DNA from: Alloascoidea hylecoeti
Taxonomy: Eukaryota
DNA length: 64,000 nt
Direction: 5' to 3'
NCBI GenBank assembly: GCA_001600815.1
Contig: BCKZ01000019.1
Span: forward strand, 435,981-499,980
Shown: piece by piece, positions 14,861 to 51,100 of the stretch
Layout of the letters: the number at the start of each line of letters is the position of its first letter
Numbering within the stretch: position 1 is the first letter of the stretch
Notes under the pieces: generated by a model
Told to the model about the DNA's origin: nothing
The model's input: the letters and a program-made list of their open reading frames with translations, nothing else
Databases searched by the model: none
Translations under genes and position numbers: made by a program

Positions 14861-15282
14861 AAGATTTACACAACAAAATATCGAACATATATTATCAGTA
14901 TTATGAGATCAAGTAGACTTTATTAAAACTATTTTCAATAATATACATTTGTTGGCGTTTTTTCAATTCGTGGTTGAAGTGTAATAGTTTTGGGAGTCTG
15001 AATTGTAAGTATTAAGTACGCTTTTTCATCTCAGTTTTGCTAAAAAATCAGATTTTCGGCATTATTAATTATTTGAAAAAAACTTTTCAATACTATATTT
15101 TCTTCTAATGATCTATTGTATACGTATATGTAAGTGTAATTTATAACAATCAATTTAAATAATATTTTTTATAATTTTAGAACTGTATATCTACAGGAAT
15201 ATATGCTTTTTTAAAAAATCAATATTTGATTACTTTTCATTTATTTTTATTTTTATTTTTATTTTTATTTTTATTTTTATTT

Positions 15283-17628: not shown

Positions 17629-18652
17629 ATGGTACTAACAGAGGAACAAAAGAAAAGAATAGCAGATAATAGAGCAAAAGCTCTAGAAAGATTAAAAAAT
17701 AGGGGAACGCAGAGAAACCAGACATCCTTAACTAGTGCAGTAGCAAGTACCAGTACTAATCATTCAAATAATTCTGTTCCCGAACGAAATAGCAATACTA
17801 ATTCACAACAAAGTAAGCAAAATAGTAAAAGATCGCATTCCTATATATCAAAGGATTATATCGAATATGATCTTTCGAAAATGGTGGATTCTCGGGGTGG
17901 ATTTATACCCGAAGACGATATTATAAATGATAAAAATAAGCAAACATTAAAAGAGTGGCAAGAACAACAACAAAAAGATTCCGAGATTCCGAGTTCAATA
18001 TCAAAATCAAACAAAAATAACCCAAGTTGTTTTGAATGTAATACAATTGAAATTGATTATCTTTTGTATCGAAAATTTAATAAAGCAAGAGTTTGCAAGC
18101 AATGTGAAAAGAAATACCCAGAGAAATATTCACTTTTAACAAAAACCGAATGTCGACAGGATTATTTATTAACAGATCGTAAGTACTCTCTATTTTTTGG
18201 ATATTATTGGAATTTTATGGTATTTCTGTTTGTTCAGCTTCTAAATATACTTTTTGTATGATATAGCTGAATTAAATGATCAAGATCTATTACCTCATCT
18301 TGAAAAGCCAAACCCACACAAACAAACGTATTCAAACATGATGTTATATCTTCGGTATCAGGTTGAAGAATATTCTTTCAAAAAATGGAACGGAGGAGAA
18401 GGTTTGGATGCTGAATATGAACGTCGTGTGCAGCAAACAAAAGAACGTAAAGATAAAAAGTTCTTAAAGAAGCTACAAGATATGAGGAAGAAGACAAGAG
18501 CCGAAGAATACACGAGGCGAATTAAAGATGGAAGAGGCATAGGAGATCATACACATGAATGGGGTGACGCTGTTCAAGTAGGAGACGACGAAAGAGTTGT
18601 CGCCAGAAGATGTTTTGGATGTGGGCTTGAAACCGAAGAGCTTCTAATTTAG
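17629..18652 (+). CDS. RAD14: Nucleotide excision repair protein Rad14/XPA; exons 17629-18178 and 18267-18652
   Basis: YIEYDLSKMVDSRGGF, C4 zinc finger, KYSLLTKTECRQDYLLTD/PEL, KPNPH and C-terminal RRCxxCG. Intron 18179-18266 (GTAAGT..TAG) restores TDPEL. Confidence 0.95.
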
Positions 18653-21048: not shown

Positions 21049-23075
21049 ATGTTTCCATTATATTACCTTTAGCAATTTGTTTTGTATTATATCCTCGTGC
21101 AATTACTCAAAATTTAAGATGTGTAAATGATGGTGAATGTGGGGAAGTTTTAGTTCTTGAATATTTGCTGGATAAGTGTTTATAGCCAGTACAAACTATA
21201 CAGCCTTTTTACACATAATTCTTTGCTTGAATAGTTTTGTTATAAAGTATATTAATATATCCAATGAAAATATCACTTACCTTCGCCCGTTTTTCAGATA
21301 TGACAATATTATTAAAAGCATCCACACCTAACTCTAGGATTTCAGAACTTGTATCTAACTTATATTCTAAGAACATGTCATTCCATATTATCATTGGAAA
21401 CACACATTGTCACATATATATAATTACTATAATCTTTGAAAGAATAGAACACGAAAAAGTGACATTAACCTTGTGGCAGAATCAAATTGTTCCGAATTAT
21501 AATGACAACAATGAGATATTGTTGGTGGAAACTTTGTTCCTAATGCTAAGAAAGGATGAGTACGAGGATTGCTGTTCCTTAAACTAACTGCTGTTGGACT
21601 TTTGGAGTTATTGTATGTCGAAAATACAATTATTGATACGACTATTATTGATAATCGTAAGATCAATGGTGGTGACCCTAATATAAACCATACTGATGAT
21701 GAATGTGTAATACAAATAATCCCGTTGATCACTGGTTCAATTATCGTCGCATCTCGAGTGTTTATTTTCAGTCAGATTCAAAATCCGAAACAATAATAAA
21801 TTATACGCAGAATTCCCACAAACTTCTGCTTAATAAACCTTCAGATCAATTTAATTGGAAAAATACAATCTCCATTGAACCTAAAAGTACTTCTTGCCCT
21901 ACAGCCGATAATAATTATAGTATTTGGAAAGTCCCAGTCAACTTTCATGAGAAATTATATATGTAGAGCTATCACTTTGGTATCATGATCAAAAGTTTTA
22001 TACTATTTAACATTCTTTATAAGAAAAGGAAAAAAGGGATAAAAAAATCTTATGCAGTCCAACATGGTGATTTATTCACACCTGAGAAATTTATAAAAAT
22101 TAATGATAACACTGCTAAGAAATATCTAATATCAATTATTTTTCCTATTGAAAATTATAGTTTTTATCCATCTGGTCGTATTATTATAAATTGTTATAAG
22201 AAAAATAATGGATAGTAATAACAAATTACACTCAACAATGGTTTGGCAAATTAAACTCAATTATGATTTAAGTGTTTATCAATATAAGATGCGAAGATTT
22301 CGAGTGGAAATGCGCTTTACAGAAAATACCCATCTACTTATTCTTTAGATTATCATGATTAGCTCAAATTTATTTCAAATTTATTTCAAATTGATTTTAA
22401 TTGGAAAATTATAAATAATGTGTTCTTTAATAACTTATGTTGTGTTGATAATTTTCAATTATTATGAATTCCAGTTATAAGCTTTTTAAATATGATTAGA
22501 AATAATAACAATATTGAAGACCATATAAGAATTGATGCTGAATCTTTTAATTCAATATTTTCGGATACTTCAGATATATGCTGTGACTTTAATTTATATG
22601 GCGATAATAGTTATGCCAATTGCAATTGGAAAGTCATACTAGAAACTCCTAGAAATAATATCCTTCATCCTTTAATAAACATTAAGCACCCTAATTTTGA
22701 AATACAAGAAATCAAAGTTGATCCAAAAAAATAATAATATAGCAATAAAAGTTCAATATTACCGTTGGAGCTATTCCAGATATGAATGTTGAAATATTGG
22801 ATAAAAGATTTGAATATTTTATACTTTATGATATTGAAACTGAAAAATAGAAATTTATTGATTTAAATAATACATCAACTGATAACTTTCAAACTTTGAT
22901 GAACTTTGTTCTATTTGGTGAAGATTCTGTCAGTATTCCAATTTATAAGTAAATAACAGCTACAAGATCTTACAGTCCTACCGTACCACCCAAAATTGTT
23001 ACATTTCAAGCGCAAATTGCAAAACCTGCAACAAATATAAATTATTCAAAGATAGTACTGCTAAAATATACTTAA
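21049..23075 (+). pseudogene. Decayed secreted/cell-surface protein gene (possibly adhesin-like)
   Basis: Signal-peptide-like start (SIILPLAICFVLYPRAIT-QNLRCVNDGECG) after ATG 21049 with a frameshift. Successive protein-like fragments on + (ORFs 21569, 21703, 21985, 22492, to ..TFQAQIAKPATNIN) are interrupted by many stops. Confidence 0.45.
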
Positions 23076-24007: not shown

Positions 24008-24482
24008 ACTTCCTTTATTAATGTTTAAATTTTCGGTAATAACAATATCACCATACATAGTAAAAACAACTAATAGCCTTTTCGAATCAATATCAGTTGA
24101 CTAAGTTAGCTATGAATGATGATTCAAAAATTGATTCAGAAACCGATTCATGGTATGAATTATATAAAGAACGTTATCGTTTAGAACGGAAAAATGATAA
24201 ATTTACACAATATAGATGACGTGTTCATTCTGCCAAAACATTTTTTGTGTTATATTTTTTAATGGATGGCGTTGTATGTTATGCTGTCATTTTTCCAATT
24301 TGATTCTAAACGATAACGTTCTTTATATAATTCATACCATGAATCGGTTTCTGAATCAATTTTTGAATCATCATTCATAGCTAACTTAGTCAACTGATAT
24401 TGATTCGAAAAGGCTATTAGTTGTTTTTACTATGTATGGTGATATTGTTATTACCGAAAATTTAAACATTTATAAAGGAAGT
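24008..24482. repeat. 179-bp near-perfect inverted repeat (arms 24008-24186 and 24304-24482, 117-nt spacer)
   Basis: Arms compared by eye; only one mismatch seen (cctttattaatg vs cctttataaatg). Additional pairing ggaaaaatga/tcatttttcc occurs inside the spacer. Confidence 0.95.
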
Positions 24483-24600
24483 CGGTTTCTGAATCATCAT
24501 TCATCAACAAGCTTTAACTATACTATTTTAAACAATTTATATTTGTTGCTGGTTTTGCAATTCTTGGTTGAAATCAAACAATTTCGGATTTGCCATTAGC
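24483..24600 (-). pseudogene. Inverted paralogous fragment of the 21049-23075 pseudogene
   Basis: Minus strand aaattgtttgatttcaaccaagaattgcaaaaccagcaacaaatataaattgtttaaaaatagta aligns with plus 22993-23057 aaattgttacatttcaagcgcaaattgcaaaacctgcaacaaatataaattattcaaagatagta (IAKPATNIN in both). Confidence 0.7.
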
Positions 24601-28739: not shown

Positions 28740-30059
28740 TCACCAAGCTAAAACTTCTTTCTTTTCACTGCATTCCAATTTCTTACAGATGCCATCTAAA
28801 TCTTTAGCCATATCATTCATATCACCACCAACAAATGCAGGATTAATAGGATGTCCAGCTTTTTCTTCCTTGTCAAAATGTGCCTTAACAAGATCTTTGA
28901 CAACGTTTTGATAATATAAAACACCTCTTTCCTTTTGTGGATGTAAGAAACCAGTTGAATAAATTCCTTGATTTAAGTTCTTTTGAGTTGCTTCACAAAG
29001 ATCAAAATCTTCAATTTCAACTTGTTGCAAGAAATCAACAAATTCTTTAATTTCTTCATCACTAGTACCCTTCTTTCTGTAAATGTCATACATTAAAATT
29101 GTATGAGATGCTGAAACTGGGCATACTCTAATTGAATACCAGGCAGGTGAATAACAGTTGATACCATTACTTGGGAAAGCATACATCCACATACCATCGG
29201 TGTCACCACCTGTGTTTTTTGGTGCTTCAACTTCAACAACCTCTTCGACAATAGTTTTTCTACCAAGCCAATCAGTTGATTCAACCTTCTTTGTGATTTT
29301 CTTTGGTTCTGGTCTAACAACTTGAGCAAAATGACGGCAATAGTTGGTTTTGGGCTGAACATTATAGGTATTCATTTTAAAGGCGGTGTTTAAACCAGGA
29401 TGAGTAGTAGGACAATGATAACATTCTTGGTAACCATCCATCAAAGTTTTCCAGTTAAATTTACCATCTAATTGGTAAGACATGTGATATTCATAGTCGC
29501 TAAAATCATATTCATTCATTTCGTTTTCCATACCAACAAACCATTCATCAAATGGAATTGGTCCTTCTTTTGTGCTATCAAAATTGATGAATACAAGACC
29601 TTGATTTGTAACATGGGTTCTAATTGGGAATAATCCATTTTCAGCCTTTTCAAAACCTTCAACAGTATCAAAATGTGGTGCTTTTGTTAATTCTCCATTG
29701 GTATTGTAAGACCAACCATGGTATTTGCATCCTAAAACTAATGAAGATCCTTGTTCTTTACGAACAACTGGGAAAGCACGATGACGACAAACATTATGGA
29801 AAGCATGAACTTCACCTTGTTTGTTCTTAACTATGAAGAACTGAAGACCTGCAAATGTATAAGAAAGATAATCACCAGCCTTTTTTAATCTTGACTCGTG
29901 AACAACAAAGAGCCAACATTTGAAGAAGATTGCTCTCTTTTCTAATTCTAAAACGCTATCGGAAAGAAACCATGAGGATGGTAAAGTGTGTAAGTTAGCT
30001 TCGGGTTTGTCAGTTGGGATAGTAGGAGCAGATGCCTTTTCGATTTGAGCAGTAGCCAT
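28740..30059 (-). CDS. Rieske non-heme iron monooxygenase, CntA/YeaW/yeast Cmo1 type
   Basis: Rieske ligands NVCRHR and CKYHGW; mononuclear Fe site NWKTLMDGYQECYHCPTTH..EDFDLCE, with the bridging Glu and C-x-x-C typical of CntA. Confidence 0.9.
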   Translation of the reverse strand: MATAQIEKASAPTIPTDKPEANLHTLPSSWFLSDSVLELEKRAIFFKCWLFVVHESRLKKAGDYLSYTFAGLQFFIVKNKQGEVHAFHNVCRHRAFPVVRKEQGSSLVLGCKYHGWSYNTNGELTKAPHFDTVEGFEKAENGLFPIRTHVTNQGLVFINFDSTKEGPIPFDEWFVGMENEMNEYDFSDYEYHMSYQLDGKFNWKTLMDGYQECYHCPTTHPGLNTAFKMNTYNVQPKTNYCRHFAQVVRPEPKKITKKVESTDWLGRKTIVEEVVEVEAPKNTGGDTDGMWMYAFPSNGINCYSPAWYSIRVCPVSASHTILMYDIYRKKGTSDEEIKEFVDFLQQVEIEDFDLCEATQKNLNQGIYSTGFLHPQKERGVLYYQNVVKDLVKAHFDKEEKAGHPINPAFVGGDMNDMAKDLDGICKKLECSEKKEVLAW

Positions 30060-32303
30060 TGTTAAGTTTAGTAATTATATCAAGCAATGATAACGATAAT
30101 AAAAGAATAAGAGGGGATTTGAAGAAGTATTTATATAGATCTATAGTTATCAACGACCCCACTAAGAAACCTGCTATCTTACTCCTGCAATACTAGTTGT
30201 AGACATGAAAACCGATAACCATAATTATTTTAAATCGTAATCCTGTTGGGGTCATGGTACTCATTGTATAGAACACTAGCCAGATTACCTACGCCGTATC
30301 TCCTAATTGGGAAAATCTACGTATAGAACTGATTATGCACGAAGGGTTTCTTGACCGAATAGGGTAATCGACTGTAGCCTCTAACGATTCTGACCACTCA
30401 AATCTTTTTTTGAGATGTTGGAGAGGGAAATGAATATTGAATTACTATTTTTGGAAATATTGCAATGTGAATGTTTGTAAAATGTTAAGTGATGATAAAT
30501 GTTATATAGTCCCATATGTATTGATATCGATATCGATTTAGACAATTCCGAATTGTAGTACCGAAGGACTTCTCATACTTTATCAGTATCATACAATAGA
30601 ATTATTTCACTATATTAATAATAAAAGATATGAAATTCTCTAAAATTGAAAATTATCTCCAAATTTTATGTAAAAGACTATGATTTTAAAGGTATGTTTT
30701 GTTCGTTTAACCTAAATCCAAGCCTTTTAATTTCTAGCTAGATAAGCCTATTTCCCTTACAACTGTTATTACTGTTAAATACAATCTATTCCTTACCTTT
30801 TCCATTTAATTTTTGGTGCTCCTTTAAGCTTAATGTACCATATTGTTATAAGGATACCATTGATTTTTGATATCCCTAATGATTAATGCGGCATACATAT
30901 CTCGATTTAAAGTTCTTCTCAGCGAAAGCTTAAAAAGCCAGTTTGTTCATTATAATTATGATTTATCGAATACCAACAAATAGTGAATTATCTAATATAT
31001 CACTCACTATACACAAAGTTAATAACTTTCTCTATAACTGGTAGTTCAACTCAATTAATATATGCAATATTAATTAGAAGATGATAATCCTGAAATATAC
31101 TTGCAGAAATTCAAAAAATATCTCAAATCTCGCTATCGTAAAATCTGAATAGGCAAATTTTTAAAGAACAATTAGCCAGAAGTAAGTATAATTATAAGCA
31201 TTAGCTCTATAGCTGTGATGTCTGCATATAAACTGTAATGTTCAGATATATCTAGATATCTAATCAGCTATAGCGATAGATTACGGCCAATCATTTCGAT
31301 ATTTGTATATAATATTTACACTCTTTTATGCAAAAATTTCTGTTCAATAATAACTCTTGTTCAATAATCAACTTACAGCTAGTATGTGATCAAGAAGTCA
31401 CTAGGTATAGCCATACATCAAACCCTTCTGGAATTACTTGAAAGGGATAAAACAATAAAGTTCAACAATTATATCTATGGTCAGTAAAAATCATAAAGAA
31501 GAAGCTGCAATTCATAACCCGCGGGATTCAAATACTAAATGGTACGTCTAGTTATGCATGCTGATAATTTTGTACGTGTGGTACACAAAAAAATCATATT
31601 TAAAATACAGCCAATTCTATTTTTATAGCTGTATTCTGTCAATTAGTAGTAAATTATCTATAAGATCTTAATATGATAGCCAGCTAACTACTGTTTATCA
31701 TTGATATGTAACTGAACATAGAATGAAAATACAGAAATCTTGATTACATCTTATAAATTTATAATCAAATTATTAGTTAAGTTCTGAAATCTATATATTG
31801 TGATTGCTTAATTTTATCTTCAGCTTCAATTGTAAGACATTTCCAAATTAAGAAAAGAGAAACCGTGGGATGTCATTATTTGTTTAATTTCCGATTATTA
31901 TTCAAACGACTTTTAATTATGGATTCGCGAATTCAATCAAGTATCATGATCTTATGAATTGGAAAACATATAGGTATAACATTGAACCGCCAGCTATAGG
32001 TATGAATCAGTATTATGGTAACCTTATAGATTCGGAAACATAGAATGTATAACGCTGAACTGCCAGCTGTAGGTGGTGTGGTATGGCATAGCGTGCTATA
32101 CAATCATAATTATAATTACAAACATTGAAACAAACGTTAACACTGGACTGCCGTTTGGCCACAGGAATTCAATGATTATTTATAATTATTTCTAAAAATG
32201 GTTATAAATATAAACCATTACAATTATTTCCTATAACTAATATAAAAATCATTAATCTTGATAAATATATGTTTACTCATACGCATAGATTCATGATCAA
32301 GAT

Positions 32304-33878
32304 CTATTTCCAACTATCGATTCTCATTGTACCATTTTCTCTCAAATTTAAATGCATTTTAAATACTTTATCCAACATCTGTGGTTCATTCAAACTTTTA
32401 CTTTTCTTACATTCAAATTCAGCCCTTTTAAAGTACTCTAATAATAATGGTTTGTAAACGGGGTGTGCACAATTTTCAATAATTTTCAACGCTCGATTTC
32501 TTGGAGAACATCCTCTTAAATCAGCCAGACCTTGTTCAGTAACCATTATATCTAGATCATGTTCTGTATGATCAATATGTGAACACATTGGCACTATACA
32601 CGATATCCCAAATGGGTCAGTTTTTGTTGGTCGTGAAGATGGTGAGTGCATTATTCCTAATTTACCACTTCTTAAGAAATCATTCGAACCTCCAATACCA
32701 TTAACTAATTTACTCCCAGAAACATGACTTGAATTTGCATGTCCATAAATATCAACTTCAACTGAACTATTCATTGCAATAACTCCTAATCTTCTAATTA
32801 TTTCAGGTAAATTAGTTACTGATTGTGGTCTTAATATTAACATTTTTTTATAATCTTCCCAATTGGAATATAATTTACCAAAAGCAGCTCTACTGAAAAC
32901 TAAAGCAGTACTACTTGCGTAAACAACTTTACCAGATTCCATAAAATCAATAAAAGAATCTTGTAATACTTCACTCCAAACATATAAATCAGAAAATGGA
33001 CCATGAGCCAAACCTTCAATAACTGCATTTGCAATATTCCCTACCCCACTCTGTAAAGGTAATAAATTTTGTGGAAGTCTACCATATTTAACTTCATGTT
33101 GGAAAAACTCAATTAAATGAGATGCAATTCCACCACAAACATCATCAATTGGATCAGGATCAACTACACTATCCATTTCATCACTTTCAACTACAGCAAT
33201 AACTTTTGAAGGGTCAATTTGAATAGTTGGTGTTCCAATTCTATCAGTTGTTTTGCTAATTGAAATTGGTTTTCTATAAGGAGGGAAAACTGGAGGTACA
33301 CAATCATGAATACCCTGATAAAATGGCCAAATGTTTGAAGTATTAACTTCTAATATAATTTTCGAAGCAACACTTGTTAATTCAGGTACGGCTCCAATAG
33401 CAGGACCCATTATTAAACTTCCATCTTCTGAAATACCAGAACATTCAATAATTGCAATATCAATTGATGGTTCACTTGGAGGTTTATCCAAAGAATAAAA
33501 CCCATAACCAATATCTTGTATCCAAGAGCTTAAATGCTTATCAAAAAATTCAATTTCACCACTATTAACACCATCTGCGATGATTTTACCAGATTGATAA
33601 GGTGATCTTTTTGATAACATTTTATTTTTGGCCCATCTTAATTCCATTGGACCGGTTGAAGCGCCACAAAGTAAACTAAAACGAAGTTCACCTTGTAAAT
33701 TATTTGCTTCAACATAATCTGATAGCACATCGGGTATTTTTTTAGGAGCGCCAGCAGCTCCAAAGCCAGACCATCCTAAAACTTGGCCGTTCTTGAAAAA
33801 AGGGATACAATCTGAAGCCTTGGCTACTTTAGATAAATAGGGCGTGTACTTTATTCTCGATTTGAACAAGGAAGACAT
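32304..33878 (-). CDS. Acetyl-CoA hydrolase/CoA-transferase (Ach1 family), divergent paralogue
   Basis: LPLQSGVGNIANAVIEGL, VWSEVLQD (catalytic Glu), EVDIYGHANS and HTEHDLDIMVTEQGLADLRG. Likely start MSSLFKSR at 33878. GFGAAG and GGSND deviate from the usual GFTGVG and GGSAD. Confidence 0.9.
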   Translation of the reverse strand: MSSLFKSRIKYTPYLSKVAKASDCIPFFKNGQVLGWSGFGAAGAPKKIPDVLSDYVEANNLQGELRFSLLCGASTGPMELRWAKNKMLSKRSPYQSGKIIADGVNSGEIEFFDKHLSSWIQDIGYGFYSLDKPPSEPSIDIAIIECSGISEDGSLIMGPAIGAVPELTSVASKIILEVNTSNIWPFYQGIHDCVPPVFPPYRKPISISKTTDRIGTPTIQIDPSKVIAVVESDEMDSVVDPDPIDDVCGGIASHLIEFFQHEVKYGRLPQNLLPLQSGVGNIANAVIEGLAHGPFSDLYVWSEVLQDSFIDFMESGKVVYASSTALVFSRAAFGKLYSNWEDYKKMLILRPQSVTNLPEIIRRLGVIAMNSSVEVDIYGHANSSHVSGSKLVNGIGGSNDFLRSGKLGIMHSPSSRPTKTDPFGISCIVPMCSHIDHTEHDLDIMVTEQGLADLRGCSPRNRALKIIENCAHPVYKPLLLEYFKRAEFECKKSKSLNEPQMLDKVFKMHLNLRENGTMRIDSWK

Positions 33879-34185
33879 TTTAATTTTGGGGTAGAAATAT
33901 ATATTATTCAATTTATATTTAAATACGGTTTATTATACGGTTATATCATAATTATAGTTTTAGGTAAACTGAAAAGTGGGGTATTAAGTATTATCCCTTC
34001 AAACTATATACTATGGCTAACGGCGGTAGAGAAGAAGAAATGTTGTATTAAACCGGTCAGCGTTTTTTAAGGGCATTGAGACAAGCCAATAAAATTAAAC
34101 CATGGCTGTGTGGGGAATCTGGAGATGGTTAGCTAATATAACCGCAGTAAATATCACAGAGCCGGCTCTTTTTGAGATTATTAGA

Positions 34186-35703
34186 TTACGTAAGATTTAC
34201 ATGGACAGCCTTTGTTTGAGTATACTCTGAAAATCCCCATTCACCCAATTCTCTTCCAAACCCACTCATTTTAACTCCACCAAAGGGAACCCTTTGATCC
34301 TCATTATTACTGCAGTTCAAATAAACAGACCCAGCTTCTATTGTTCGTGCCAACCTATGTGCGCGTGACATGTCTTTGGTGAAAATCATTGCTGCTAAAC
34401 CATATTCGCTGTTATTGGCTTTTTCAACTACCTCTTCTTCTGTTTTAAAAGGCGCAATTGCAGCTACTGGACCAAATATTTCTTCTTTCATGATTGTCAT
34501 ATCTTCAGTCACATCTGCAAAGATTGTTGGTTCAACGTAATATCCATCGGACAAAGGGCTAGTAGTTGGAGCCTTACCGCCAATGATTAATCTCGCACCT
34601 TCTTTAATACCAGATTCAATATATTTTAATACCTTTTCTTGTTGTAATTTTGAAATTAAAGGACCAATTTGAACTTTTTCATCAAAAGGGTCTCCAATTT
34701 TATAATTATTTTCACAGTAATCAGCAAATTCTTTTATGAACTTTTCATAAATTGACTCATGAACATAAATTCTTGAATTTGCTGTACAATTTTGTCCCAT
34801 ATTATACATTATACCAAATGATGCCCATTCAATTGTTTTTTCAATATTTGCATCTGGAAAAACTAATAATGGTGATTTACCACCACATTCTAATGTAACT
34901 GCTTTTAAATTTGATGATGCTAATTTTTGTACAATTTGTCCTGTTAATGTTGATCCCGTAAATACAATCTTTCTAACTTTTAAATGACTCGCAATTGCTG
35001 CACCACAAGTATTACCAAAACCTGATAAAATATTGAAAACACCTGCCGGGAATCCTGCTTCTTTAACTAATTTTGCTAAATAAAGCATTGATAATGGTGT
35101 ATTTTCTGCTGTTTTCATAATTATACAATTTCCTGCTGCTAATGCTGGAGCAAATTTCCAACCAGCCATTGAAATTGGATAATTCCAAGGTATAATTTGT
35201 CCAACAACTCCAAATGGTTCATCAATCGTATAAGCATAATTTTCTTCATCTTTATGAATTAATTTATCATTTGATTTTGATTTATCTATCCATCCTGCAT
35301 AATATCTAACAAGAGCACTTGTACTATAAATATCATTAATTGAATTAGTTTGATATGGTTTACCTGAATCCATTGATTCAATTTTTGCTAATAAATGAGC
35401 ATTTTCATCAATTAAATCTGCAAAGTTATTCATAATTTTAGCCTTTTCTTCATGATTTGTTTTATTCCAAACATTATAAAAAGTTTTTGTTGCAATTTTA
35501 ACTGCAATATTAACATCTTCTTCTAATCCTTCATAAATTGATACAATTGATTTTGATGTTGTTGGATTGAATGTTTCGAATTTTGCTTTTGATTGTGATG
35601 GGACAAATTCGTTATTTATAAATAATCCAATTGGCTGAAGATATGCTTCACCTGTTGGAAGAGTTATTTCAACTTCTAATTGATCTTCAATTGATGATGA
35701 CAT
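34186..35703 (-). CDS. Cytosolic NAD+ aldehyde dehydrogenase, Ald2/Ald3-like
   Basis: IIPWNYP, FTGST, TLECGGKSP, GQNCTANSR, EEIFGPV and PFGGVKMSGFGRELG. ECGGK and CTANSR are Ald2/3-type signatures; no mitochondrial presequence. Confidence 0.93.
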   Translation of the reverse strand: MSSSIEDQLEVEITLPTGEAYLQPIGLFINNEFVPSQSKAKFETFNPTTSKSIVSIYEGLEEDVNIAVKIATKTFYNVWNKTNHEEKAKIMNNFADLIDENAHLLAKIESMDSGKPYQTNSINDIYSTSALVRYYAGWIDKSKSNDKLIHKDEENYAYTIDEPFGVVGQIIPWNYPISMAGWKFAPALAAGNCIIMKTAENTPLSMLYLAKLVKEAGFPAGVFNILSGFGNTCGAAIASHLKVRKIVFTGSTLTGQIVQKLASSNLKAVTLECGGKSPLLVFPDANIEKTIEWASFGIMYNMGQNCTANSRIYVHESIYEKFIKEFADYCENNYKIGDPFDEKVQIGPLISKLQQEKVLKYIESGIKEGARLIIGGKAPTTSPLSDGYYVEPTIFADVTEDMTIMKEEIFGPVAAIAPFKTEEEVVEKANNSEYGLAAMIFTKDMSRAHRLARTIEAGSVYLNCSNNEDQRVPFGGVKMSGFGRELGEWGFSEYTQTKAVHVNLT

Positions 35704-36690
35704 TTCTTTGTAAATTATTGTAAGAAAGAGAAGCTTAGTTTATCCTAATTATAAACGTTAAGAAATAGAAAATCACCATTAATTTATATTGATTCGGGTA
35801 GCATTACTGTATTTGGAAATAACCTATCAAATAGCAGGATTCAATACAATTAAGATTAGATCCAAAACACCCCACATCAGACTGTTTTCAAATCAAATCA
35901 AATAAATATTATGTTAGGAGATCTCTACCTAATGATGATAGTGTTTATTTTAGACCTTAAAAAGAATATTAACTTTTATTATTAAGGGAGTTGAACTAAA
36001 CTCTACTATTGATTAATAATGATTCAGTCAATTCACTTAATTTAAGCCATTATGATCACTAATTATCGGATATTCAAAAAACTATTTTAGCCCGTATAAG
36101 GAACAAATTCGGATGTCAAAATCCCACCAAAATCAGTTATGCAGGAGGTCTATAATTAGTAATCATAATGGCTGAAATTAAGTAAAAAGACTATACAATA
36201 GATACGCGCGATAACATTTTTAAGATGAGTACTATACGGACTAATAGTATGTGTTAAGCCTATAGTGTATCTATATTTATAATTATTCTAATTACTATTA
36301 TATGTATTACTTAATAATTTCTATTCAATTTCTAGTATTGCTATCATTATATCGTTTTGTGCCATTGTTAAAGTTTGGCATATATCAACATAAAACCATG
36401 CATGTAGATCATACACATGATAGATAAGAAAGCTCCATAAAGACGAACTTTGAAGAAAAATTTAAGAAATATCAAGTTGGAAGACCTAGGTCGATACAGC
36501 CATTTGCAGGTTGCCATTTGCAGGTTGCTAAAAGGGAACAAATTTAAAATAAGGTTCTTCTAAAAAAAGACCCTCCCAGCGGTACATCCAGGAACGCTAG
36601 GTATATTTCGGGACACCTTAGATCATCGTCGTTATGTTGTTATCCTCCTATCTTTCTTCTTTTTAACCTCCCCACATATTCAGTAAGAAC

Positions 36691-38682
36691 ATGATTATCA
36701 ACAATATTATCACTCTAAGAGTTTCAACGACGGGGTCGTTTGATGATGAAAGTGATGTAAGACGCTTTTTTCTAACATCCGGGAGTCCAATTTTGATTGG
36801 AAGATCATCTCGCTTTTTGGAGTCTAGAGAGGCAAAAAATACTAATGCGTTGTTTCCATATACTGTTCTTTCTAAAACACATGCCCTCTTACACATTCCA
36901 TTGTATCATAGAGAGGCTGATGGTACTGCTGTTGTCGATGAAAGCGATGGGTATTTTGTTGAAGACCTTGGTTCTAAAAATGGAACAATGCTAAATGGGC
37001 AGGTATTAGAACCCCATAAGAAGTATCCACTGGTTCCGGATAAAGATGGTTTTGTTATTCTAGGCTTTGGTATTCCATCTAAGCTTCATTCATCTCAAAA
37101 ATCTAATAATTCTACCACAGTTGGTGATGATGGAAAGGCTAAAGGAGTTGGATTTCCGAAGGCGAAGCTTATCATGAAAGTATTCTTTCCTGCATTGAAA
37201 AAGCTCGGAACAACAGTTGCCTCCGACAAAGTTGACGTTACTAAGATTTCTTACATCACTAATAGTGATGATGTCTATGTAGTTGGTCCTCAGAAAAAAA
37301 CTATTATTGAAAAAGGGGAAATTAAATTCGGTGAGGAAATGAATAAATTCACGGAGGATATGAATAAATTTGGAGAGGATATGAATAAATTCGGAGGTGA
37401 TGTGAATAAATTTAAAGAGGATATGGATCATCATTCAAGGGTTATGGATGATATGATGAAAAAAGTTGAGCCCGTTATTATCAATCTTAGCGATGATGAT
37501 AACGACGACAATGACAGTGGTGATGATTTTCACGATGATGAATTATTTGATTGCGGCTTTTCTGATGATGATGTCGATGATAGTGAGGATGATGCTGCTG
37601 ATGACGATGACGATGACGATGATGAAGATAATGATGAAGAAGTATCAGATGATTGCACTTTTAATCATGAGCTGGCTGGTTGCTTGTTTAACTTTTCCAG
37701 TGTTCAACCGAAACCTTTTCCGTTGCCCTGTTTCAAAGACATTGTATCTAAAAATTTCAATGAATACCTTGAAAACAAGGTACGCTGCCCAGATATTATC
37801 CATAATATCAACGTTGGTGACCTTGGAAGTAAAGATGTCCAAAAGAATGACAATGAAAATGAATCATCATCTGATAAAGATCATATAGACAGTGATTCCT
37901 CTTCGGATGTTAGCGAATATAGGTCTCACAACAGCCGATCAACTACAGTCAATGCAAACGAGAGTGAGACTACATTGGAAGAAGTTTCAGTAACTCATAA
38001 TGAATCCTATATAAGGGATGATGACAAACGATCGAATATGGCACAAGTACTTGTTAATGAGAGCTCTGAAAAAGAAAATATGTGTACTCCAAATGCTGTT
38101 GAAATCTCACATTCTCAATTGGATGAACCATCCGCTTTATATAATATAATTAAAAAGCGAGAAAACTCACCCAGTGATGAAGATAATGATAATGATAATG
38201 ATGAAACAGTCATTGATAGAATTGATATTAAAATGTATGAACCTACCAGTCAAACTCATGATCAAGCGACTTCTATAAAAGACGATGTGAAGAACAAATT
38301 GTATCATGGTAACATAACTACTGTTGATGAGTTTTTATTTTCAAGTTCTTTTGCTTCACGTGAACTCAGTAGTGCCGATTTTCCAACTAATCCGCCATCG
38401 GAAATTTGGTGTGGTGAGGAGTTAAAACCTGAAGATGAATCACACTATAATATTACACTTGGTACTAAACGTAAATATGATGAACTCCATTCTGAAGATA
38501 ATGCTGGTTCAATTAAGAAAAATGAAGAAAAGAAGGATGAGCGACAACCACACAAAAAGACCAAAAGGGATATTTTCAAGAGAATTGGGAAACAAATTGT
38601 TACACATTCTGTTGCAGCTATCTTTGGTGGTGTTGGAACTATAGCATTATTAGCCAAATTAAATGAAAATGATATGCTATAA
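36691..38682 (+). CDS. FHA-domain protein with acidic linker and C-terminal transmembrane anchor
   Basis: FHA motifs IGRSSR, LSKTHA and DLGSKNGT; Asp-rich tract; 7-aa repeats EDMNKFG; C-terminal hydrophobic helix VAAIFGGVGTIALLA. Confidence 0.8.
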   Translation: MIINNIITLRVSTTGSFDDESDVRRFFLTSGSPILIGRSSRFLESREAKNTNALFPYTVLSKTHALLHIPLYHREADGTAVVDESDGYFVEDLGSKNGTMLNGQVLEPHKKYPLVPDKDGFVILGFGIPSKLHSSQKSNNSTTVGDDGKAKGVGFPKAKLIMKVFFPALKKLGTTVASDKVDVTKISYITNSDDVYVVGPQKKTIIEKGEIKFGEEMNKFTEDMNKFGEDMNKFGGDVNKFKEDMDHHSRVMDDMMKKVEPVIINLSDDDNDDNDSGDDFHDDELFDCGFSDDDVDDSEDDAADDDDDDDDEDNDEEVSDDCTFNHELAGCLFNFSSVQPKPFPLPCFKDIVSKNFNEYLENKVRCPDIIHNINVGDLGSKDVQKNDNENESSSDKDHIDSDSSSDVSEYRSHNSRSTTVNANESETTLEEVSVTHNESYIRDDDKRSNMAQVLVNESSEKENMCTPNAVEISHSQLDEPSALYNIIKKRENSPSDEDNDNDNDETVIDRIDIKMYEPTSQTHDQATSIKDDVKNKLYHGNITTVDEFLFSSSFASRELSSADFPTNPPSEIWCGEELKPEDESHYNITLGTKRKYDELHSEDNAGSIKKNEEKKDERQPHKKTKRDIFKRIGKQIVTHSVAAIFGGVGTIALLAKLNENDML

Positions 38683-42789: not shown

Positions 42790-42904
42790 AGTAACAAAAT
42801 GGAGTGATATAATCAAAATCGCAAGATGTAGCTAATAAATATTAATTGCCCATATATTTCGAATTCTTACTCCCTCCTACCATCTTCACAGAAAGATTTG
42901 AAAA

Positions 42905-43320
42905 ATGTCTGCCAAATTCACACGAAATGAGCTACAAAAATTTAACGGTGTCACCAAACCTGAAGTTTACTTAGCTGTTGGTGGAAAGGTCTTTGATGTA
43001 ACCTCAGGTGCTGGATTTTATGGTCCTGGTGGCCCATATGCCATATTTGCTGGTCATGACGCCTCTAGAGGTTTAGCTCTAAATTCTGTCGATCCAGGTA
43101 TGTTTTCACACTCTCGATTATGATCTGTATCTGTGATAGGAACATTGATTTTAACGTTCAATTGATTTTAACGTTCAATTGATTTATAGAGATGATTAAG
43201 CCATTTGATCAGCCTATTGATACACTCGATGATCTTACACAAAGCGATATTAACGTGTTAAAAGAATGGGAATCTTTTTTTGTCAAGAAATACAAATGCC
43301 TTGGAGAATTGGTAGAATAA
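42905..43320 (+). CDS. Cytochrome b5-like heme/steroid-binding protein (Dap1/MAPR family); exons 42905-43097 and 43190-43320
   Basis: FDVTSGAGFYGPGGPYAIFAGHDASRGLA. Intron 43098-43189 (GTATGT..TAG) yields DPEMIKPFDQPIDTLDDLT..EWESFFVKKYKCLGELVE*. Confidence 0.9.
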
Positions 43321-44260: not shown

Positions 44261-45162
44261 TGAGTGTTATCAGTGTTAATGAATTTATTTGTTTTTTCAA
44301 AATCACTGCTAAATAATTGTGAGTAGTCACTTTTAACTTAAAATTATCGTAAAACTACTGAAAACCCAATGATGATGATCCTGTTGGGGAGAAACATCCT
44401 AAACTTGCGACAGGGCCAGTATTTATTAACAGTGCAGCCCTGCAACGCATAAACTTGCCTACTATTTGTGTGTATATAATTAGGATTAATGTGAATTCGC
44501 TATCGTACCATTTTGTGCATCCAAAGCCTGAGCTGGATGTTGATCCCTTGAAATTATCTTCTTTTTTCTTTGTAATTATAACATATTGTATAACTATAAG
44601 ACTTATTCTTATTAGATCATTTTTGACTTATAATTATAAGGTATCTGTAGCTATCATACCTAGCTAACTAGCAATCCAACTAACTATCTAGTCATCGATT
44701 GCGACTTTGATCTCAATTTATTATACCTTTTTTGAATCCAATAGCGAAAGTTGACCTCACAAGGGGATTTATAGTATAATTATTGGGATTTATGTCACAT
44801 AAGTTATATCATTTTTAACTTCAAAAATGGAGTCAATTCCTCAACAAATAGTTTAGATCAAAGATTATCCGATGATTCCAACTATAGTGTTGGCACAAGT
44901 GCTACATCTAGTTATACAGTTGTTTTTTAAGTCTCAATTTATAACGCTTTGCTTATGGTATTTAACTAATATTTTTTATTCATTGCTTCTTATATTTATG
45001 CAAAAAGTATCTCTCGAAAGGTGGCCACAGTGGTCTTCGATGTGCCTTTCACAATGTTTCATTGGTCTAGCCGTTGGGGTAATATTTCGCAAACCTCCAA
45101 CGACCTCACATCTCCAAAATCACAACCACCATCACCTCCATACTTACACACATGCCACACAC

Positions 45163-48100
45163 ATGTCCTACGAAAACTCAAACAGAAATTTCTTCATCTC
45201 CGGTTTCAACAGAAGAGTTACACCAATCTCCGGTGGCATTGGCCGTGATTACTGGATGAAGGATGAATCTGCTGCTGAGTGTTTCTCATGTAGTAAACAC
45301 TTCACAACATGGCGACGCAAACATCATTGCCGAATATGTGGCCAAATCTTCTGCAGTTCATGTACTTCCTTAATACAGGGTGAACGTTTCAATTATGATG
45401 GTAAAATGAGAGTTTGTTCGCCTTGTTTGAAAATGTTGAACAAATACCAGGATTTACAACTGAGTGAATCGGAATCAGATTATGAAGAAGAACAAGATCA
45501 ACTTCAACGGCATGACTACAGTATATCAATGGATCATGAACCACAACCAGCTCCACCGATGACTATTCCTGCTACGAGGATGGCGAGTTCTGTTGCTGTT
45601 GAATTACCTTCTAGATCCCAATCCATCTCTGTTTCTCATTCTCAACACCATATTTCATCACAATCTTTAAATCAAGTTACTTATAATGCCAACGAAAGAA
45701 AAGGTCGATCTATTTCTCATCGCCACCACACCCTACAATCACATTCTCATCTTCATCATAATCATCATGGTCATGGTCATGGTCATGGCTATGGAGAGGG
45801 TAAAAGTGTACTATTTGATGATTGGGATGCTCAAAGTGTAAGATCAATGAGTATTCAAAATACTCATCCACTTTCTTATTCTGATTGGGATAATGATACC
45901 GATGAAGAAGACGAAGAATCAATGAGTTTATATGCTGCATTAAATTCCACAACCACTCCAAATAATAATTTACAAATACAACGACCTAGATCAGCTAGTG
46001 CTACAATATCTTCAAGAAGATTAAAGGAAAATAGTTCAAATATAAATAATAATGCAATTTCTGATAATTCTCCAAAGGCAACTACTTCAAATAGTCACTT
46101 ACGAAAGTTTTCTTCACGATCTTGGACAAATTTGAATACGACTATCCTAAATACTAATACTAATACTAATACTAATACTAATACTAATACTAATACTAAT
46201 ACAAATTCTAACCTTAATAATAATAATAATACTGGTACTAATAACAATAATACTACTACTTCTAATAACAACAATACTACTACTACTTCTAATAGTAACG
46301 ATAATAATACAACTTCTAATAACAATAACAATCAGCAACCAAAAGTTTTACAACAACGACAATCTTCAGAATTAACTCCGCTTGCACTATCCCACTCCCA
46401 ACTGCTCCTTTCCCAACTCCTTTCAAACTTACACCTTTCCCATGAACAACACACACAATTTCAAAAAGCAATATCAAAAGCCTTATTAATTGCAACTAAA
46501 AACATTATAGTTGATGTAAAATCTGGTGATTCAATAGATGTTCGAAACTATATAAAATTGAAAAGAATTCCTGGTTCCACCCCCAAAAAGACGAAATATA
46601 TACAAGGTTTAATTTTCGCTAAAAAACTATCTTTGAAAACAATGCCTAACTCCATCTCCAACCCCCAAATTTTATTAATTACATTCCCATTAGAATACAA
46701 TAAACATGAACAACATTTCATGTCTTTAGAAACAGTAATAGCTCAACAAGAAGAATATCTGAAAATCTTAGTTGCAAGAATATTAGCCTTGGGCCCACCA
46801 TCAATTGTTATAGTATCAAAGGGAGTTTCTAGGTTTGCATTGGATTTATTACATCAATATGGCATTGTTGTAATATATAATGTTAAGGAACATATTATTG
46901 AAAAATTGGCTAGATTAACTGGCAGTGATGTCATTTCATCAATTGAAAAATTTGCAATTGTAAGGAATCATCAACATCATAATAATAATAATCAATCAGA
47001 TATTAACAGTATCATTAATAATATTAGCGGTTCAAATGGGAAACCACATTTAGGTACGTGTTTGTCATTTAAAGCTAAAACTTTTCAATTTGGTGAGAAT
47101 CAAATGCCAAAAACTTTCTTATATTTTGAAGGATGTCCAAAAGAATTGGGGGCAACTATTATTTTAAGGGGAGGTGGTATGGATATCCTAGGAGAGGTTA
47201 AGGAATGTGTGGAGTTTGCAGTCTATGCTTATTTTGGGTTGAAGTATGAGACTGCCTTGATGAGAGATCAATTTATTTCAACTCCTTGTGTGGATAAAGC
47301 TGATAATATCGATGAAAATGATAAGGGGAAGGAAAACGAAATGATTGATGATACAAATAATGAAGCTAAAAGCGTATTAATAAACGACACTGATGATTTA
47401 AAACCAGAACTCGAAGAAAATGAAGAAACAATTGAAAATGATACTGAAAAAACAGAACACGAAAATGAAAAATTTCATAGTATATTTGAAAAACTTGTAA
47501 AACTTCATGAATCTTCAATATTATCAACATCACCAAGTGTTAAATTCCCAGAACCTTATTTATTGACAATAGCCCGAAATCTAGAGAAAGAACTATATCA
47601 ATATAAATTAAAAATATCACATTTTGAGAGTTCCAAAACTAACTCCAATGAAATTCAAGATTTATTAGATTATCTTGGTTTTAAATTTAAAATCATTGAT
47701 TTACCGAAAGGCATTGAAGATGCAATAAATATCATTTCAACAATTTATGATTTTAAATTCAAAAACTTGCAAAATAATTTTATTTCAAAACAACGACAAT
47801 GGGAATTATTTTATTCACCATACATGTTTGAACCAATGACTCATCAGTCTTTTGTCTTTTTATATTCAATGATTTCATCAGTTAATGCAACACCATGTGT
47901 TGGTCCAGATATTTTGGAAATCCTTTATTATAGTAATAGTGATATGACACTTGGTCAATATATTGAACATGTTTGTCTTTCGGCAAATTCAAATAATTGT
48001 ATTGAATGTGGACTATCATTAATTTCTCATTATAGACAATATGTTCATGATACATTTAAATTAGATGTTATTGTTGAAAATTTTAAATGTCGAATACCAG

Positions 48101-51100
48101 GTTTACAAAATTCAATTTTAATGTGGTCATATTGTAAAAAATGTAAGAATTCAACGCCTGTTGTGCCAATGTCAAAAACATCTTGGAATTATTCATTTGG
48201 AAAATATTTGGAATTGAGTTTTTGGAGCGAAAAAAATCATTTAAGAGCTGGTTTATGTGAGCATGATTTTTTCAAAGATCATGTTAGATATTTTGGATTA
48301 TATGATTTAGCTGTGAGGTTTGAAATTAGTGAAATTGATGTTTTGGAATTGAAAACACCAAATAGTATTATTACATGGCAGATTGAAAATGATATTCAAT
48401 TAAAATTAGATTTATTTAATTTAATTGCTTCAAAAACAATTGACTTTTATCAATCAATTGAAAATCGTTTAAATAGAGTTAAAATTGATGATCAATCAAT
48501 TGAAGTTAAAGCAAGAATTTTAGAATTGAAACAAAAATCAAATGATGAAATGAAAATCATTAAAGAAAATTTGAAAAATATTTATGAAATGACTGATGCT
48601 ACTGAACATTTGATTTTAAATTCAATAATCAGACAAATTCAGGATGCTGCTGTTATTTGGGATGGCATATTTTTGGAATTTGAACAAGAATTTTTACCTT
48701 CGGAGAAAGATATCACAAGGATTACGGCCTTTCAGCTGAAGAAACTTTTTACTGCCACGGATGATAAGAAGGAAAAGAAATTAAAAGAAAAAGAAAAAAA
48801 AGTAAAAATTGAAAAAGAATTAAAGGAGAAAGAATTAAAAGAAAAGGAAAAGGAAAAGGAATTAGAAATGGAAAAAGAGAAAGAACAGGAATCAGAAGAA
48901 AATGAAAAGAATGAAAATGAACTGAATAGTAATATTAATGATGATTCTAAAGATGAACAGAACAATAATAATCAAAATAATTCTAACGATGAACAGAACA
49001 GTATTAAAAACGACTCCCAAGAATACAAAGAAGAAATTATCGATCCAAAAGTTCCAATTGAAAATACATTTGTGTCACCTATAGCTTCATCTAATACCAA
49101 GACTCCAGCTTCAATATCTAATGATTCTAATGAAAACATATTAGAATCAATAGAATCTAAAATATTGGAACTTGAAAACAGCCCTAAGAAGAAACCGGTT
49201 TTATCACACGCCAACTCATCATCATCACCTCCTTTAACTATTAATTTATCTTCAAATAATAATGTTATACTACGTGGGAATCATAGAGTACTAGATGAAG
49301 TCGCTAAATTTGAACAAGAAAATAAAACAACGTCAAACATTAATAATATTACTATTAATGAAGTATTAGATTCTATTAATAATGTGGATATATTATCACA
49401 AACCAATTTAATACAACCATCAACTATTAAAAAAAGTAATATCCCAGTATTGATGCCATCATCCACATTATCATCAAATACTTCCATCCCAGCATTGCAA
49501 CATCAACCATCATCACCCCAAATCAATAATATTATTAATTCTTTACCTACACATCGTTCAACATCATCATTTAACAATGGTATATTTGAAGAAGCAAGTA
49601 ATAAAAAATCATCAATTCCAACAAGACCTGTACCGATCAATTCAAAATTTCAATCAAGATATGCCCAAATAGCAAGTACTAAACAACTTGAATTGCAATT
49701 AAGGCAAGGTAACTTAAAGCATGGTCGTGGTGGATTCGCACAATCTCATTTACCTACCTCTCCGCCCATGTCCCAAACAGGATCTGGGCCTCAACTACAA
49801 TTTAATACATCTGCAACAAATAAAGTATCTAAATTGGCAATATTTTTCGATAAAATTCACTATGATCAAATATCGAAGGAGTTTGAATTAGAGAGAGCTA
49901 GAGAAAGAAGAAGATTAAACGCTGAACGTTTTAGGGCTAATCCAGTTGCTTCTGCCAAACCTATAGTTGAAGTTTATAAAAACGTACAGGATGCTGTTGA
50001 GGATGCAGATGGAGAAGATGAAGTTGGTAGGAAAAAAAGTAATGTTGTTGATAAGCCGAAGAAACAGAGACTTAGAAATATGAATAAGGTTGGTAATGGT
50101 GAATCCACTCATTTATCAACTGATGATAAAGATAAATTATTGAATAATTCTCAAAAGGAAAGTAATAGTGGTAATGAAAATGAAAATGACGATGACGATG
50201 ACGATAATGATGACGATAATGATGAAAATGTAGATGAAAATCAAAATGAAAAAGAAAAGAAAGGGAATAAAAATATCATTGACAAAAATGAGAATTCTGC
50301 TGTAACTGATTTATTGGATAACAAACCTTATTACGAAACCTCGGACATAAATCCAGTTGATATACCTATTCAACCAGGGGAGGATAAAGGCAAACAAAAG
50401 GAAGAAACTCTTAGTGATTCCAATTTCAAATCCATGTCGGAATCTGATATCATTAGAGAATCCACAAGTTCAAGTAGCAATGTAAATACTAATGATTCGA
50501 CTCCATTATCAGAATTACCAATTCCAACAGAAAATGAAAAGACATCACTTATAAAAACTTTACAAAATTTTTGGGCCGATAGATCTGCAACAGGTTGGGA
50601 ACCATTAGCATATCCATTATCAACATCCGAGCATATATTTGTTGATTCTGATGTTATTGTAAGAGAAGATGAGCCAAGTTCATTGATTGCATTTTGCTTG
50701 TCATCTTTAGATTATAAAGAAAAGATCAGAAAAATTCAAGAACAGGAAGCAATTAATATAAATCAAAATTTTGGTTCCTCGGAGAATGCTAGTATAAATA
50801 ATAATAATACTACAGAAAATGAACTAGAACATATGATGCTAAAAAAAACTGGTACACATTTAAGGTATCAATTTCAAGAAGGTCAAACTTTGTTATCATG
50901 TAAAATATTTTTTTCAGAACAATTTCATTCATTTCGTCAACAATGCAATTGTGATTCGAAATTTATTCAAAGTCTCTCGCGATGTGTGAAATGGGATTCT
51001 ACTGGTGGTAAATCAGGATCAGCATTTCTAAAAACTTTGGATAATAGATTAGTTGTTAAGCAATTATCACATTCGGAATTGGATGCATTTGTTAAGTTTG

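Follow-up and report, generated by a model that had tools for sequence, protein, structure and literature searches.

Yeast genes for successive steps in the use of a poor nitrogen or carbon source lie side by side in the DAL and GAL catabolic clusters, which are conserved across related species and co-regulated. As for choline, Scheffersomyces stipitis requires CMO1 to use it as nitrogen source (Linder 2014, as cited in PMC5816127). The passages of PMC5816127 on this enzyme propose that yeast Cmo1 converts choline to trimethylamine and glycolaldehyde, remark on its conserved fungal-specific C-terminus and describe it as biochemically uncharacterised. Here, we analysed a 64,000-nt stretch of DNA from Alloascoidea hylecoeti (contig BCKZ01000019.1, positions 435,981 to 499,980 of the forward strand; hereafter the window), in which a gene for an oxygenase of this family lies beside genes for an aldehyde dehydrogenase (ALDH) and a divergent coenzyme A (CoA) transferase.

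Three further enzyme types serve for comparison. Bacterial CntA/YeaW oxygenases cleave a C-N bond to give trimethylamine and an aldehyde. In CntA, Tyr203 makes a cation-pi contact to the ammonium group, Glu205 is the bridging glutamate, Cys206 and Cys209 form a CxxC pair, and His208 and His213 bind the iron (PMC7948474 and PMC10952381). PMC7948474 also assigns the residues of the substrate pocket, including Phe258, and uses the aromatic residue at position 203 to separate group Va from the demethylating Vb clade, which has Asn there. Plant choline monooxygenase is also a Rieske and mononuclear-iron choline oxygenase; it yields betaine aldehyde and does not split off trimethylamine. In AarC, a succinyl-CoA:acetate CoA-transferase of Acetobacter aceti, the residues with described roles are the catalytic Glu294, Asn347 and Gly388 of the oxyanion hole, Ser71, the acetate-binding Thr94 and the thioester-clamping Val270 (PMC4876117).

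Our preferred reading of the locus, to which we give a probability of about 0.5, is that the oxygenase gene is a CMO1 orthologue carrying out the proposed step from choline to trimethylamine, and that its surroundings, which include a generic pair of enzymes for aldehydes and acids, are specific to the lineage and not a conserved pathway cluster. The motifs and the orthology of this Cmo1 are observed; its reaction would be the one proposed in the literature and would parallel that of CntA.

An Oxygenase of the Yeast Cmo1 Family

The oxygenase is encoded on the minus strand (28740..30059) by an open reading frame (ORF) of 439 aa with the Pfam domains Rieske (E 6e-18) and Ring_hydroxyl_A (E 6e-27), and is a Rieske [2Fe-2S]/mononuclear-iron oxygenase of group Va type. 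It is 55-68% identical to 99 database clusters (P0002-P0100) at 93-100% coverage. All 24 organism-named clusters among these relatives are budding yeasts, and identity falls to 53% or less in other fungi. Relatives in three Scheffersomyces species are 61-62% identical and that of Ogataea angusta is 64% identical, and the window protein deviates at 7 of 165 conserved columns. This full-length similarity bears out its membership in the yeast Cmo1 family, on which an earlier note on this DNA had drawn, and, judged by its sequence, it is a Cmo1 orthologue of the ordinary kind.

A motif search located the Rieske cluster ligands C91-x-H93 and C111-x-x-H114 (29715..29789, minus strand), all four of which are invariant in a 25-sequence alignment of yeast Cmo1 (A1). 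Further along the protein, the stretch Y210-Q-E212-C213-Y-H215-C216-P-T-T-H220-P-G (29394..29432, minus strand) carries the cation-pi Tyr, the bridging Glu, the CxxC pair and two iron-ligand His. Within it, E212-C-Y-H215-C-P-T-T-H220 aligns residue for residue with CntA E205/C206/H208/C209/H213, and Y210 falls on CntA Y203. A Tyr occupies the latter position in 99/100 yeast homologues, while E212, C213, H215, C216 and H220 are invariant in 100/100, so the motif is no chance occurrence. Together with H215 and H220, D351 (aligned to CntA D323) keeps the 2-His-1-Asp iron site intact. The sequence features of group Va are hence present: the Rieske ligands, the 2-His-1-carboxylate site, Tyr210, the bridging Glu and the CxxC pair.

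The E-C-Y-H-C-x3-H motif singled out in the earlier note is therefore in place and aligned to CntA. Also sound was its distinction between a CntA-type bridging Glu and a different carboxylate in plants: the residue is E212 here and Asp in the plant enzyme, according to PMC6157903. That paper puts the plant catalytic domain in the same CDD subfamily and the plant Rieske domain in a different one. Like CntA/YeaW, the window oxygenase keeps the bridging Glu, the cation-pi Tyr, the CxxC pair and the iron site, and presumably shares with them the C-N cleavage to trimethylamine and an aldehyde. It differs from them in being eukaryotic, in having no adjoining CntB-like reductase gene, in not keeping Phe258, Tyr315 and Phe319, and in being about 70 residues longer, a Trp-ended C-terminal tail included.

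This tail ends in V-L-A-W (28743..28754, minus strand), and its terminal residue W439 is invariant in the yeast Cmo1 alignment A1. PMC11126956 links a conserved C-terminal Trp of choline monooxygenases to the cytosolic iron-sulphur (CIA) machinery, and the terminal Trp of the window protein fits such a signal for cytosolic iron-sulphur delivery.

The family, the Rieske and iron motifs and the C-terminal Trp are thus common to S. stipitis Cmo1 and the window protein, whereas three substitutions near the iron site and the pocket (A219T, F287T and L290M) are unique to the latter among 100 yeast homologues. At position 219, Ala is found in 98/100 of them. T287 (29199..29201, minus strand) aligns to the CntA pocket residue Phe258; yeast Cmo1 has Phe there in 95/100 cases, and Thr occurs in the window protein alone.

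Substrate and Electron Supply of the Oxygenase

The earlier note named carnitine and butyrobetaine, beside choline, as possible substrates. If the oxygenase were a CntA/YeaW-like carnitine or gamma-butyrobetaine monooxygenase and not a choline enzyme, the ALDH would oxidise malic or succinic semialdehyde. CntA is the best solved-structure match of the oxygenase (6y8j, E 1.7e-38), some database records call yeast homologues 'cntA' or 'YeaW', and Ach1-type transferases accept succinate, according to PMC3386497. The equivalents of the bridging Glu and CxxC pair of CntA and of its Tyr203, Tyr225 and Tyr295 are all kept, the last two as Y232 and Y324. However, the alignment to CntA is strong over the N-terminal 214 residues only, a second stretch scoring 13.8 bits, and two residues of the carnitine pocket are changed: Phe258 to T287 and Tyr315 to L344, where the yeast alignment has Leu throughout. 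Phe319 stands opposite a gap, and Asn270 is matched approximately (N298) in that weakly aligned C-terminal part. Moreover, the cut-offs of the bacterial NCBIfam equivalog models are not approached, the best being GbcA at 133 bits against 670, and the genetics of the Cmo1 family as covered in PMC5816127 concern choline, which is also the substrate of the printed yeast model. A carnitine or butyrobetaine substrate is therefore unlikely on these residues, and the oxygenase is best described from its alignment as having a CntA-like electron path without the CntA carnitine pocket. A trimethylamine-forming pathway in yeast, as envisaged in the earlier note, is not a novelty of this locus: Cmo1 and such a choline route are already in print, proposed in the same passages of PMC5816127.

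A domain scan covering 15 ORFs of at least 150 aa and 37 further frames of at least 70 aa detected no reductase-type domain in the 64-kb window, which confirms the absence of a reductase gene reported earlier; no CntB-like or yeaX-type reductase gene adjoins the oxygenase within these 64 kb. The sole haem/flavin-type match in the window is a Dap1-like cytochrome-b5 fold encoded in two exons (42902-43320, plus strand). This haem/steroid-binding type of gene is no reductase, and a role with Cmo1 is unlikely. A sequence of about 22 nt, TTTTAAC branch-like site included, is duplicated in tandem within its GTATGT intron.

Under the preferred reading, a reductase encoded elsewhere would pass electrons to the Rieske cluster of Cmo1 (C91, H93, C111, H114), from which they would cross the subunit interface via Glu212 to the mononuclear iron (H215, H220, D351). 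Tyr210 would hold the trimethylammonium head of the substrate. Hydroxylation of the carbon beside the nitrogen would then give a hemiaminal that collapses to trimethylamine and an aldehyde, which would be glycolaldehyde if choline is the substrate. The role of Cmo1 would be nitrogen scavenging.

Gene Linkage and Promoters

The CMO1 orthologue shares the minus strand with the genes for a class I CoA-transferase of the Ach1/AarC family (32304..33878, 524 aa) and an ALDH1/2-class aldehyde dehydrogenase (34186..35703, 505 aa), both defined by ORF and Pfam matches. A 2.2-kb spacer without genes (30060..32303), presumably the CMO1 promoter, separates the first two. No stop-to-stop frame enclosed fully within it exceeds 63 aa; a frame of 93 aa (32176-32457) overlaps the CoA-transferase gene. 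None of 14 spacer frames of 40-93 aa had a Pfam match at E ≤ 0.1, no tRNA or Rfam family was found there, and tblastn searches for remnants of the oxygenase, CoA-transferase and ALDH families in the spacer returned none. Nothing recognisable was found in the second spacer either, a gap of 307 bp (33879..34185) that separates the stop codon of the ALDH from the start codon of the CoA-transferase. The three genes are accordingly adjacent and co-oriented with no intact gene between them, as claimed before, and the identities given to them then (Rieske oxygenase, Ach1-like CoA-transferase and ALDH) are right by Pfam.

Contigs from two other sequencing runs, possibly of the same material, show the same gene order, which rules out local misassembly only. 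One of these, a 7056-nt contig of run X3, extends over the CoA-transferase and ALDH genes and the gap upstream. No RNA run was among those listed as containing this DNA, and two metatranscriptome runs from the study of X3 gave no contig matching it, which has no bearing on expression. All three proteins also occur on one public contig of 12,901 nt, possibly from the same material and hence no independent support.

We judged linkage in other yeasts from the contig, locus tag and accession number of named homologues present in both lists, where a contig record may be that of another strain. The named species are all distant (55-65% identity), and ALDH paralogues were considered among the best 120 matches. 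In this comparison, ACH1 is unlinked to CMO1 in 12/12 named species. The two genes lie on different contigs in S. amazonensis, Suhomyces tanzawaensis, Pachysolen tannophilus, Candida arabinofermentans, Ogataea angusta, O. philodendri, Priceomyces carsonii, Lodderomyces beijingensis, C. jiufengensis, Clavispora lusitaniae and Ascoidea rubescens, and are 366 accession numbers apart in C. maltosa. The most similar ALDH is likewise unlinked to CMO1 in 11/11 named species: it is on a separate scaffold in Cyberlindnera fabianii, on separate contigs in eight further species and about 1174 accession numbers away in Candida anglica, while in Kuraishia capsulata 28 and 228 gene models separate the two ALDHs from CMO1. 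Among 53 Cmo1-bearing contigs of 10-300 kb, none matches in size a contig in the top-120 ALDH or Ach1 lists.

A metagenome scan with the 25-sequence Cmo1 alignment returned 80 loci, all distant (23-56% identity) and none a yeast orthologue. An Ach1-like gene was nearby in 0/80 and an ALDH gene in 2/80. As the matches are only distant ones, they are of no use for yeast synteny.

The ALDH promoter (35704..36690) is shared divergently with a neighbouring FHA-domain gene. No k-mer of at least 10 nt is common to all three promoters, none of the three has a Zn-cluster CGG-spacer-CCG site, and GATAAG occurs in them at or near its background rate. GATAA is found 10 times in the proximal 1 kb upstream of CMO1 against 4.2 per kb in the non-coding DNA of the window, and among the three promoters this enrichment is confined to that of CMO1.

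With the genes unlinked in the relatives compared and no motif common to their promoters, the organisation as a cluster put forward in the earlier note is not upheld in the species compared. In its lack of linkage there, the trio differs from the DAL and GAL clusters, and among the yeasts compared, ALDH and Ach1-like neighbours of CMO1 are seen in the window only. No description of a CMO1-ALDH-ACH1 cluster or of a biochemical assay of yeast Cmo1 was found in the literature searched, which did not include Linder 2014.

A Divergent but Catalytically Intact CoA-Transferase

The CoA-transferase has both AcetylCoA_hydro domains, N-terminal (PF02550, E 1e-37) and C-terminal (PF13336, E 6e-39). Over its full length it is collinear both with 8dh7, an Ach1 structure of the S. 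cerevisiae type (E 7e-204), and with AarC (4eu3, E 1e-113). With 522 bits on NF053853, the curated NCBIfam model for succinyl-CoA:acetate CoA-transferases, it passes the cut-off of 500, although each of the other eight sequences tested scored higher; it falls under the TIGR03458 cut-off, as do all eight comparison proteins.

The claim that this enzyme is divergent proved correct. Among the relatives listed, its identity to fungal Ach1 is 55-59% throughout, whether in yeasts or as far away as Rhizopus, whereas S. cerevisiae Ach1 has a median identity of 74% to the others in a 37-sequence alignment. Its end branch in the corresponding tree is 0.83 long against a median of 0.14, and it is the most divergent of the 120 fungal Ach1 sequences compared. 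At columns that are at least 95% conserved in the other 119 sequences (near-invariant columns), it deviates in 35 of 207 cases, the median protein in one. As Cmo1 deviates at 7/165 columns and the ALDH at 3/125 in the same genome, the acceleration is specific to this gene.

Residues required for catalysis are all kept. The catalytic glutamate lies in S-E303-V-L-Q-D (32958..32975, minus strand) and corresponds to AarC Glu294 in the alignment to 4eu3; N356, G397 and S74 correspond to Asn347, Gly388 and Ser71. The changes are found around these. Fungal Ach1 has His and Val in the carboxylate-site loop, which here reads S-P-Y94-Q-S96-G (33588..33605, minus strand). In total, the fungal-invariant V42, H94, V96, I279, R327 and L392 are A, Y, S, V, V and V in the window protein. 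Each of the six positions has a single residue in 117/117 other fungal sequences, the deviants being the window protein and two further divergent ones, P0122 and P0152. Position 96 corresponds to the AarC residue Thr94 and position 279 to Val270, while 392 lies five residues before Gly397 of the oxyanion-hole loop. Compared with Ach1 (8dh7) and AarC, the enzyme is thus alike in its two-domain layout and catalytic residues and unlike fungal Ach1 at these six positions.

Several of the changed positions have states that are common in distant homologues. Across 32 catalytically intact representatives, position 94 is Tyr or Phe in 31, position 96 is Ser, Thr or Ala in 25, position 279 is Val in 20 and position 351 is Pro in 27, and the window protein agrees at all four. 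Arg at position 327 occurs in 0/32, and the Val of the window protein at 327 and 392 is uncommon or absent there. We considered whether the missing Arg327 and His94 could mean a loss of dicarboxylate binding, and rejected this, as bacterial succinyl-CoA:acetate transferases also lack both. On these alignments, the backbone of the CoA-transferase is fungal, and the surroundings of its active site are not; catalytically intact by its residues, it is the unusual gene of the trio.

Drift of a redundant duplicate under relaxed selection and on its way to loss, its divergence without functional meaning, might also account for the fact that this enzyme has the longest branch of all 37-38 tree sequences and the lowest of nine scores on the curated family model. 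Against this, the 524-aa frame is intact with all catalytic residues kept, and the deviations are not random, positions 94, 96, 279 and 351 matching states of distant homologues as described above. In addition, the deviating columns of the window protein coincide with those of the two other divergent proteins 11 and 14 times, where 2.5 and 5.0 are expected; controls indicate that the pairwise overlaps among the three (10-14 against 1.9-5.0 expected) are somewhat inflated by rate heterogeneity between sites. With frame and catalytic residues intact and the changes patterned, we consider decay of this gene unlikely.

The trees place the CoA-transferase in three ways: as sister to P0122 inside the budding yeasts (37-sequence tree), in a polytomy, and, with outgroups and a mixture model, beyond the whole of fungal Ach1. 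A tree constrained to have it among the budding yeasts is no worse in fit (p-AU 0.52), and a common clade of the three divergent proteins is not rejected, nor is it shown (p-AU 0.39). P0122 and P0152 are each 57-58% identical to the window protein. The former lies inside the budding yeasts beside a canonical sequence and is 72% identical to P0130, and the latter joins P0374, a library representative, apart from the canonical clade of fungal Ach1. A profile search with the three divergent proteins found no further members in a 50%-identity library, in which fungal Ach1 is collapsed to very few representatives.

Across the three genes, CTG occurs just once, as codon 451 of the CoA-transferase (32526-32528). 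It falls on a Leu that is invariant in a three-sequence alignment (A2), which fits the standard reading rather than CTG as Ser.

An Unremarkable Aldehyde Dehydrogenase

The ALDH matches Pfam Aldedh (PF00171) with 571 bits (E 2e-171). Its best PDB matches are 7kqv (E 1e-150), human ALDH2 (about 1e-143 to 1e-144) and yeast Ald4 (8rwk, 1.5e-141). Among the matches listed, the nearest relative is 60% identical and the remainder 46-59%. The protein contains LECGGKSP (aa 271-278) and GQNCTANS (aa 303-310), which we take to be the catalytic Glu and Cys motifs of the family. An acidic N-terminus without a presequence-like start makes it look cytosolic. By sequence, it is an unremarkable, cytosolic-looking ALDH1/2-class enzyme. 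The more specific label 'Ald2/3-type' in the earlier note could not be confirmed: it rests on inconsistent database names, with ALD2 in 3 of the 119 relatives listed, several others called 'mitochondrial aldehyde dehydrogenase' or '[NAD(P)+] 1', and no S. cerevisiae sequence among them.

Are the Three Genes Functionally Linked?

In the preferred reading, the ALDH and the CoA-transferase adjoin CMO1 without being dedicated to it, their most likely task being the general metabolism of short-chain aldehydes and acids. An ALDH and a diverged succinyl-CoA:carboxylate CoA-transferase would form a generic pair converting an aldehyde to an acid and the acid to an acyl-CoA, the same chemistry as that leading from acetaldehyde through acetate to acetyl-CoA.

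Several points weigh against this reading. A producer of an aldehyde, an enzyme to oxidise it and one to activate the resulting acid are adjacent and co-oriented, and a triple of this kind is rare by chance. The changes of the Cmo1 next to the iron and in its pocket are unique to it. The CoA-transferase, to judge from its 35 deviating columns, is no ordinary Ach1, and the proximity of its changes to the active site is the pattern expected of recruitment to a new substrate. Finally, the synteny comparison covered distant named species and the best 120 ALDH paralogues. Glycolaldehyde, glycolate and glycolyl-CoA correspond, as hydroxy analogues, to the series from acetaldehyde through acetate to acetyl-CoA that ALDH and Ach1 ordinarily serve. 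The chainable chemistry and the gene-specific remodelling of the transferase keep the odds of a functional link at between a quarter and somewhat under a third.

Such a link might take the form of a true lineage-specific quaternary-amine cluster, which we regard as a tentative possibility. Here, Cmo1 would release trimethylamine together with glycolaldehyde, or with a longer omega-aldehyde from another betaine. The ALDH would oxidise this to glycolate or another short acid, and a CoA-transferase retuned at its carboxylate site would activate the acid with succinyl-CoA or acetyl-CoA as donor. This would account for the adjacency and co-orientation of the genes, with 307 bp from ALDH stop to CoA-transferase start. 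It would also account for an acceleration confined to the CoA-transferase, whose catalytic Glu303, Asn356, Gly397 and Ser74 are kept while changes occur at 96 (AarC Thr94), 279 (AarC Val270) and 392 near the Gly397 loop. The pathway as printed in PMC5816127 assigns no fate to glycolaldehyde. Conversely, the genes are unlinked in all 11-12 named yeasts compared, their promoters have no common motif and the ALDH, deviating at 3/125 columns, gives no sign of specialisation. The N-terminus of the CoA-transferase is Ach1-like, whereas Cmo1 and the ALDH look cytosolic, and the transferase may simply be the only, fast-evolving ACH1 of the lineage. We also know of no yeast route that uses glycolyl-CoA.

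A bolder version for this wood-associated lineage, which we think doubtful, would combine a Cmo1 with an altered pocket (F287T, A219T), the ALDH and a retuned Ach1-family transferase into a three-step release of trimethylamine with salvage of the carbon as acyl-CoA. If true, eukaryotes would have a first gene cluster for quaternary-amine catabolism, and the Ach1 family a first member that has turned to a new acid substrate.

Yeast choline catabolism is partly assigned to genes, the electron donor of Cmo1 and the fate of the aldehyde lacking genes in the pathway as laid out in PMC5816127. If its neighbours were functionally tied to CMO1, they would be candidates for the missing aldehyde-handling steps and would give an Ach1-type CoA-transferase its first new function. 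Returning to the reading we prefer, the results as they stand place the oxygenase as a Cmo1 with a CntA-like electron path, and add an unusually diverged Ach1 relative that is predicted to be catalytically competent.

Other Features of the Window

The window has a G+C content of about 30%, i.e., it is AT-rich, and its gene content and short introns are of the budding-yeast kind. The trio is flanked by genes for a KTR-type mannosyltransferase and for the FHA-domain protein mentioned above (36691..38682, plus strand; ORF and Pfam), both unrelated to it. Within the ALDH promoter, pieces of about 35-45 nt from 35922-36187 recur on several other contigs (runs X3 and X4), and depth over 35922-36187 is roughly doubled, which marks a small dispersed repeat.

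Two genes elsewhere in the window extend over two frames. In a FAB1-like gene (44872-51775, plus strand), the frame that encodes the PIP5K domain changes across a 61-nt intron-like stretch (51527-51587). This stretch has GCAAGT as a non-canonical 5' site, gACTAAC as branch point and AG at its 3' end, and conserved sequence is recovered once the exons are joined. A RAD14/XPA-like gene (17629-18649, plus strand) is split over two frames, its XPA_C domain being interrupted by a GTAAGT...TATAG intron at about 18180-18267.

The 8.6 kb from 6695 to 15282 contain no ORF of at least 150 aa and no above-threshold Pfam match in frames of at least 70 aa, which is unusually gene-poor for a yeast. A second stretch without ORFs of at least 150 aa, at 20.7-25.9 kb, holds an inverted repeat (24008-24186 / 24304-24482) with arms of 179 nt that are 99% complementary and separated by a 117-nt spacer. 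A weaker inverted pair (22990-23050 / 24527-24587) flanks this repeat.

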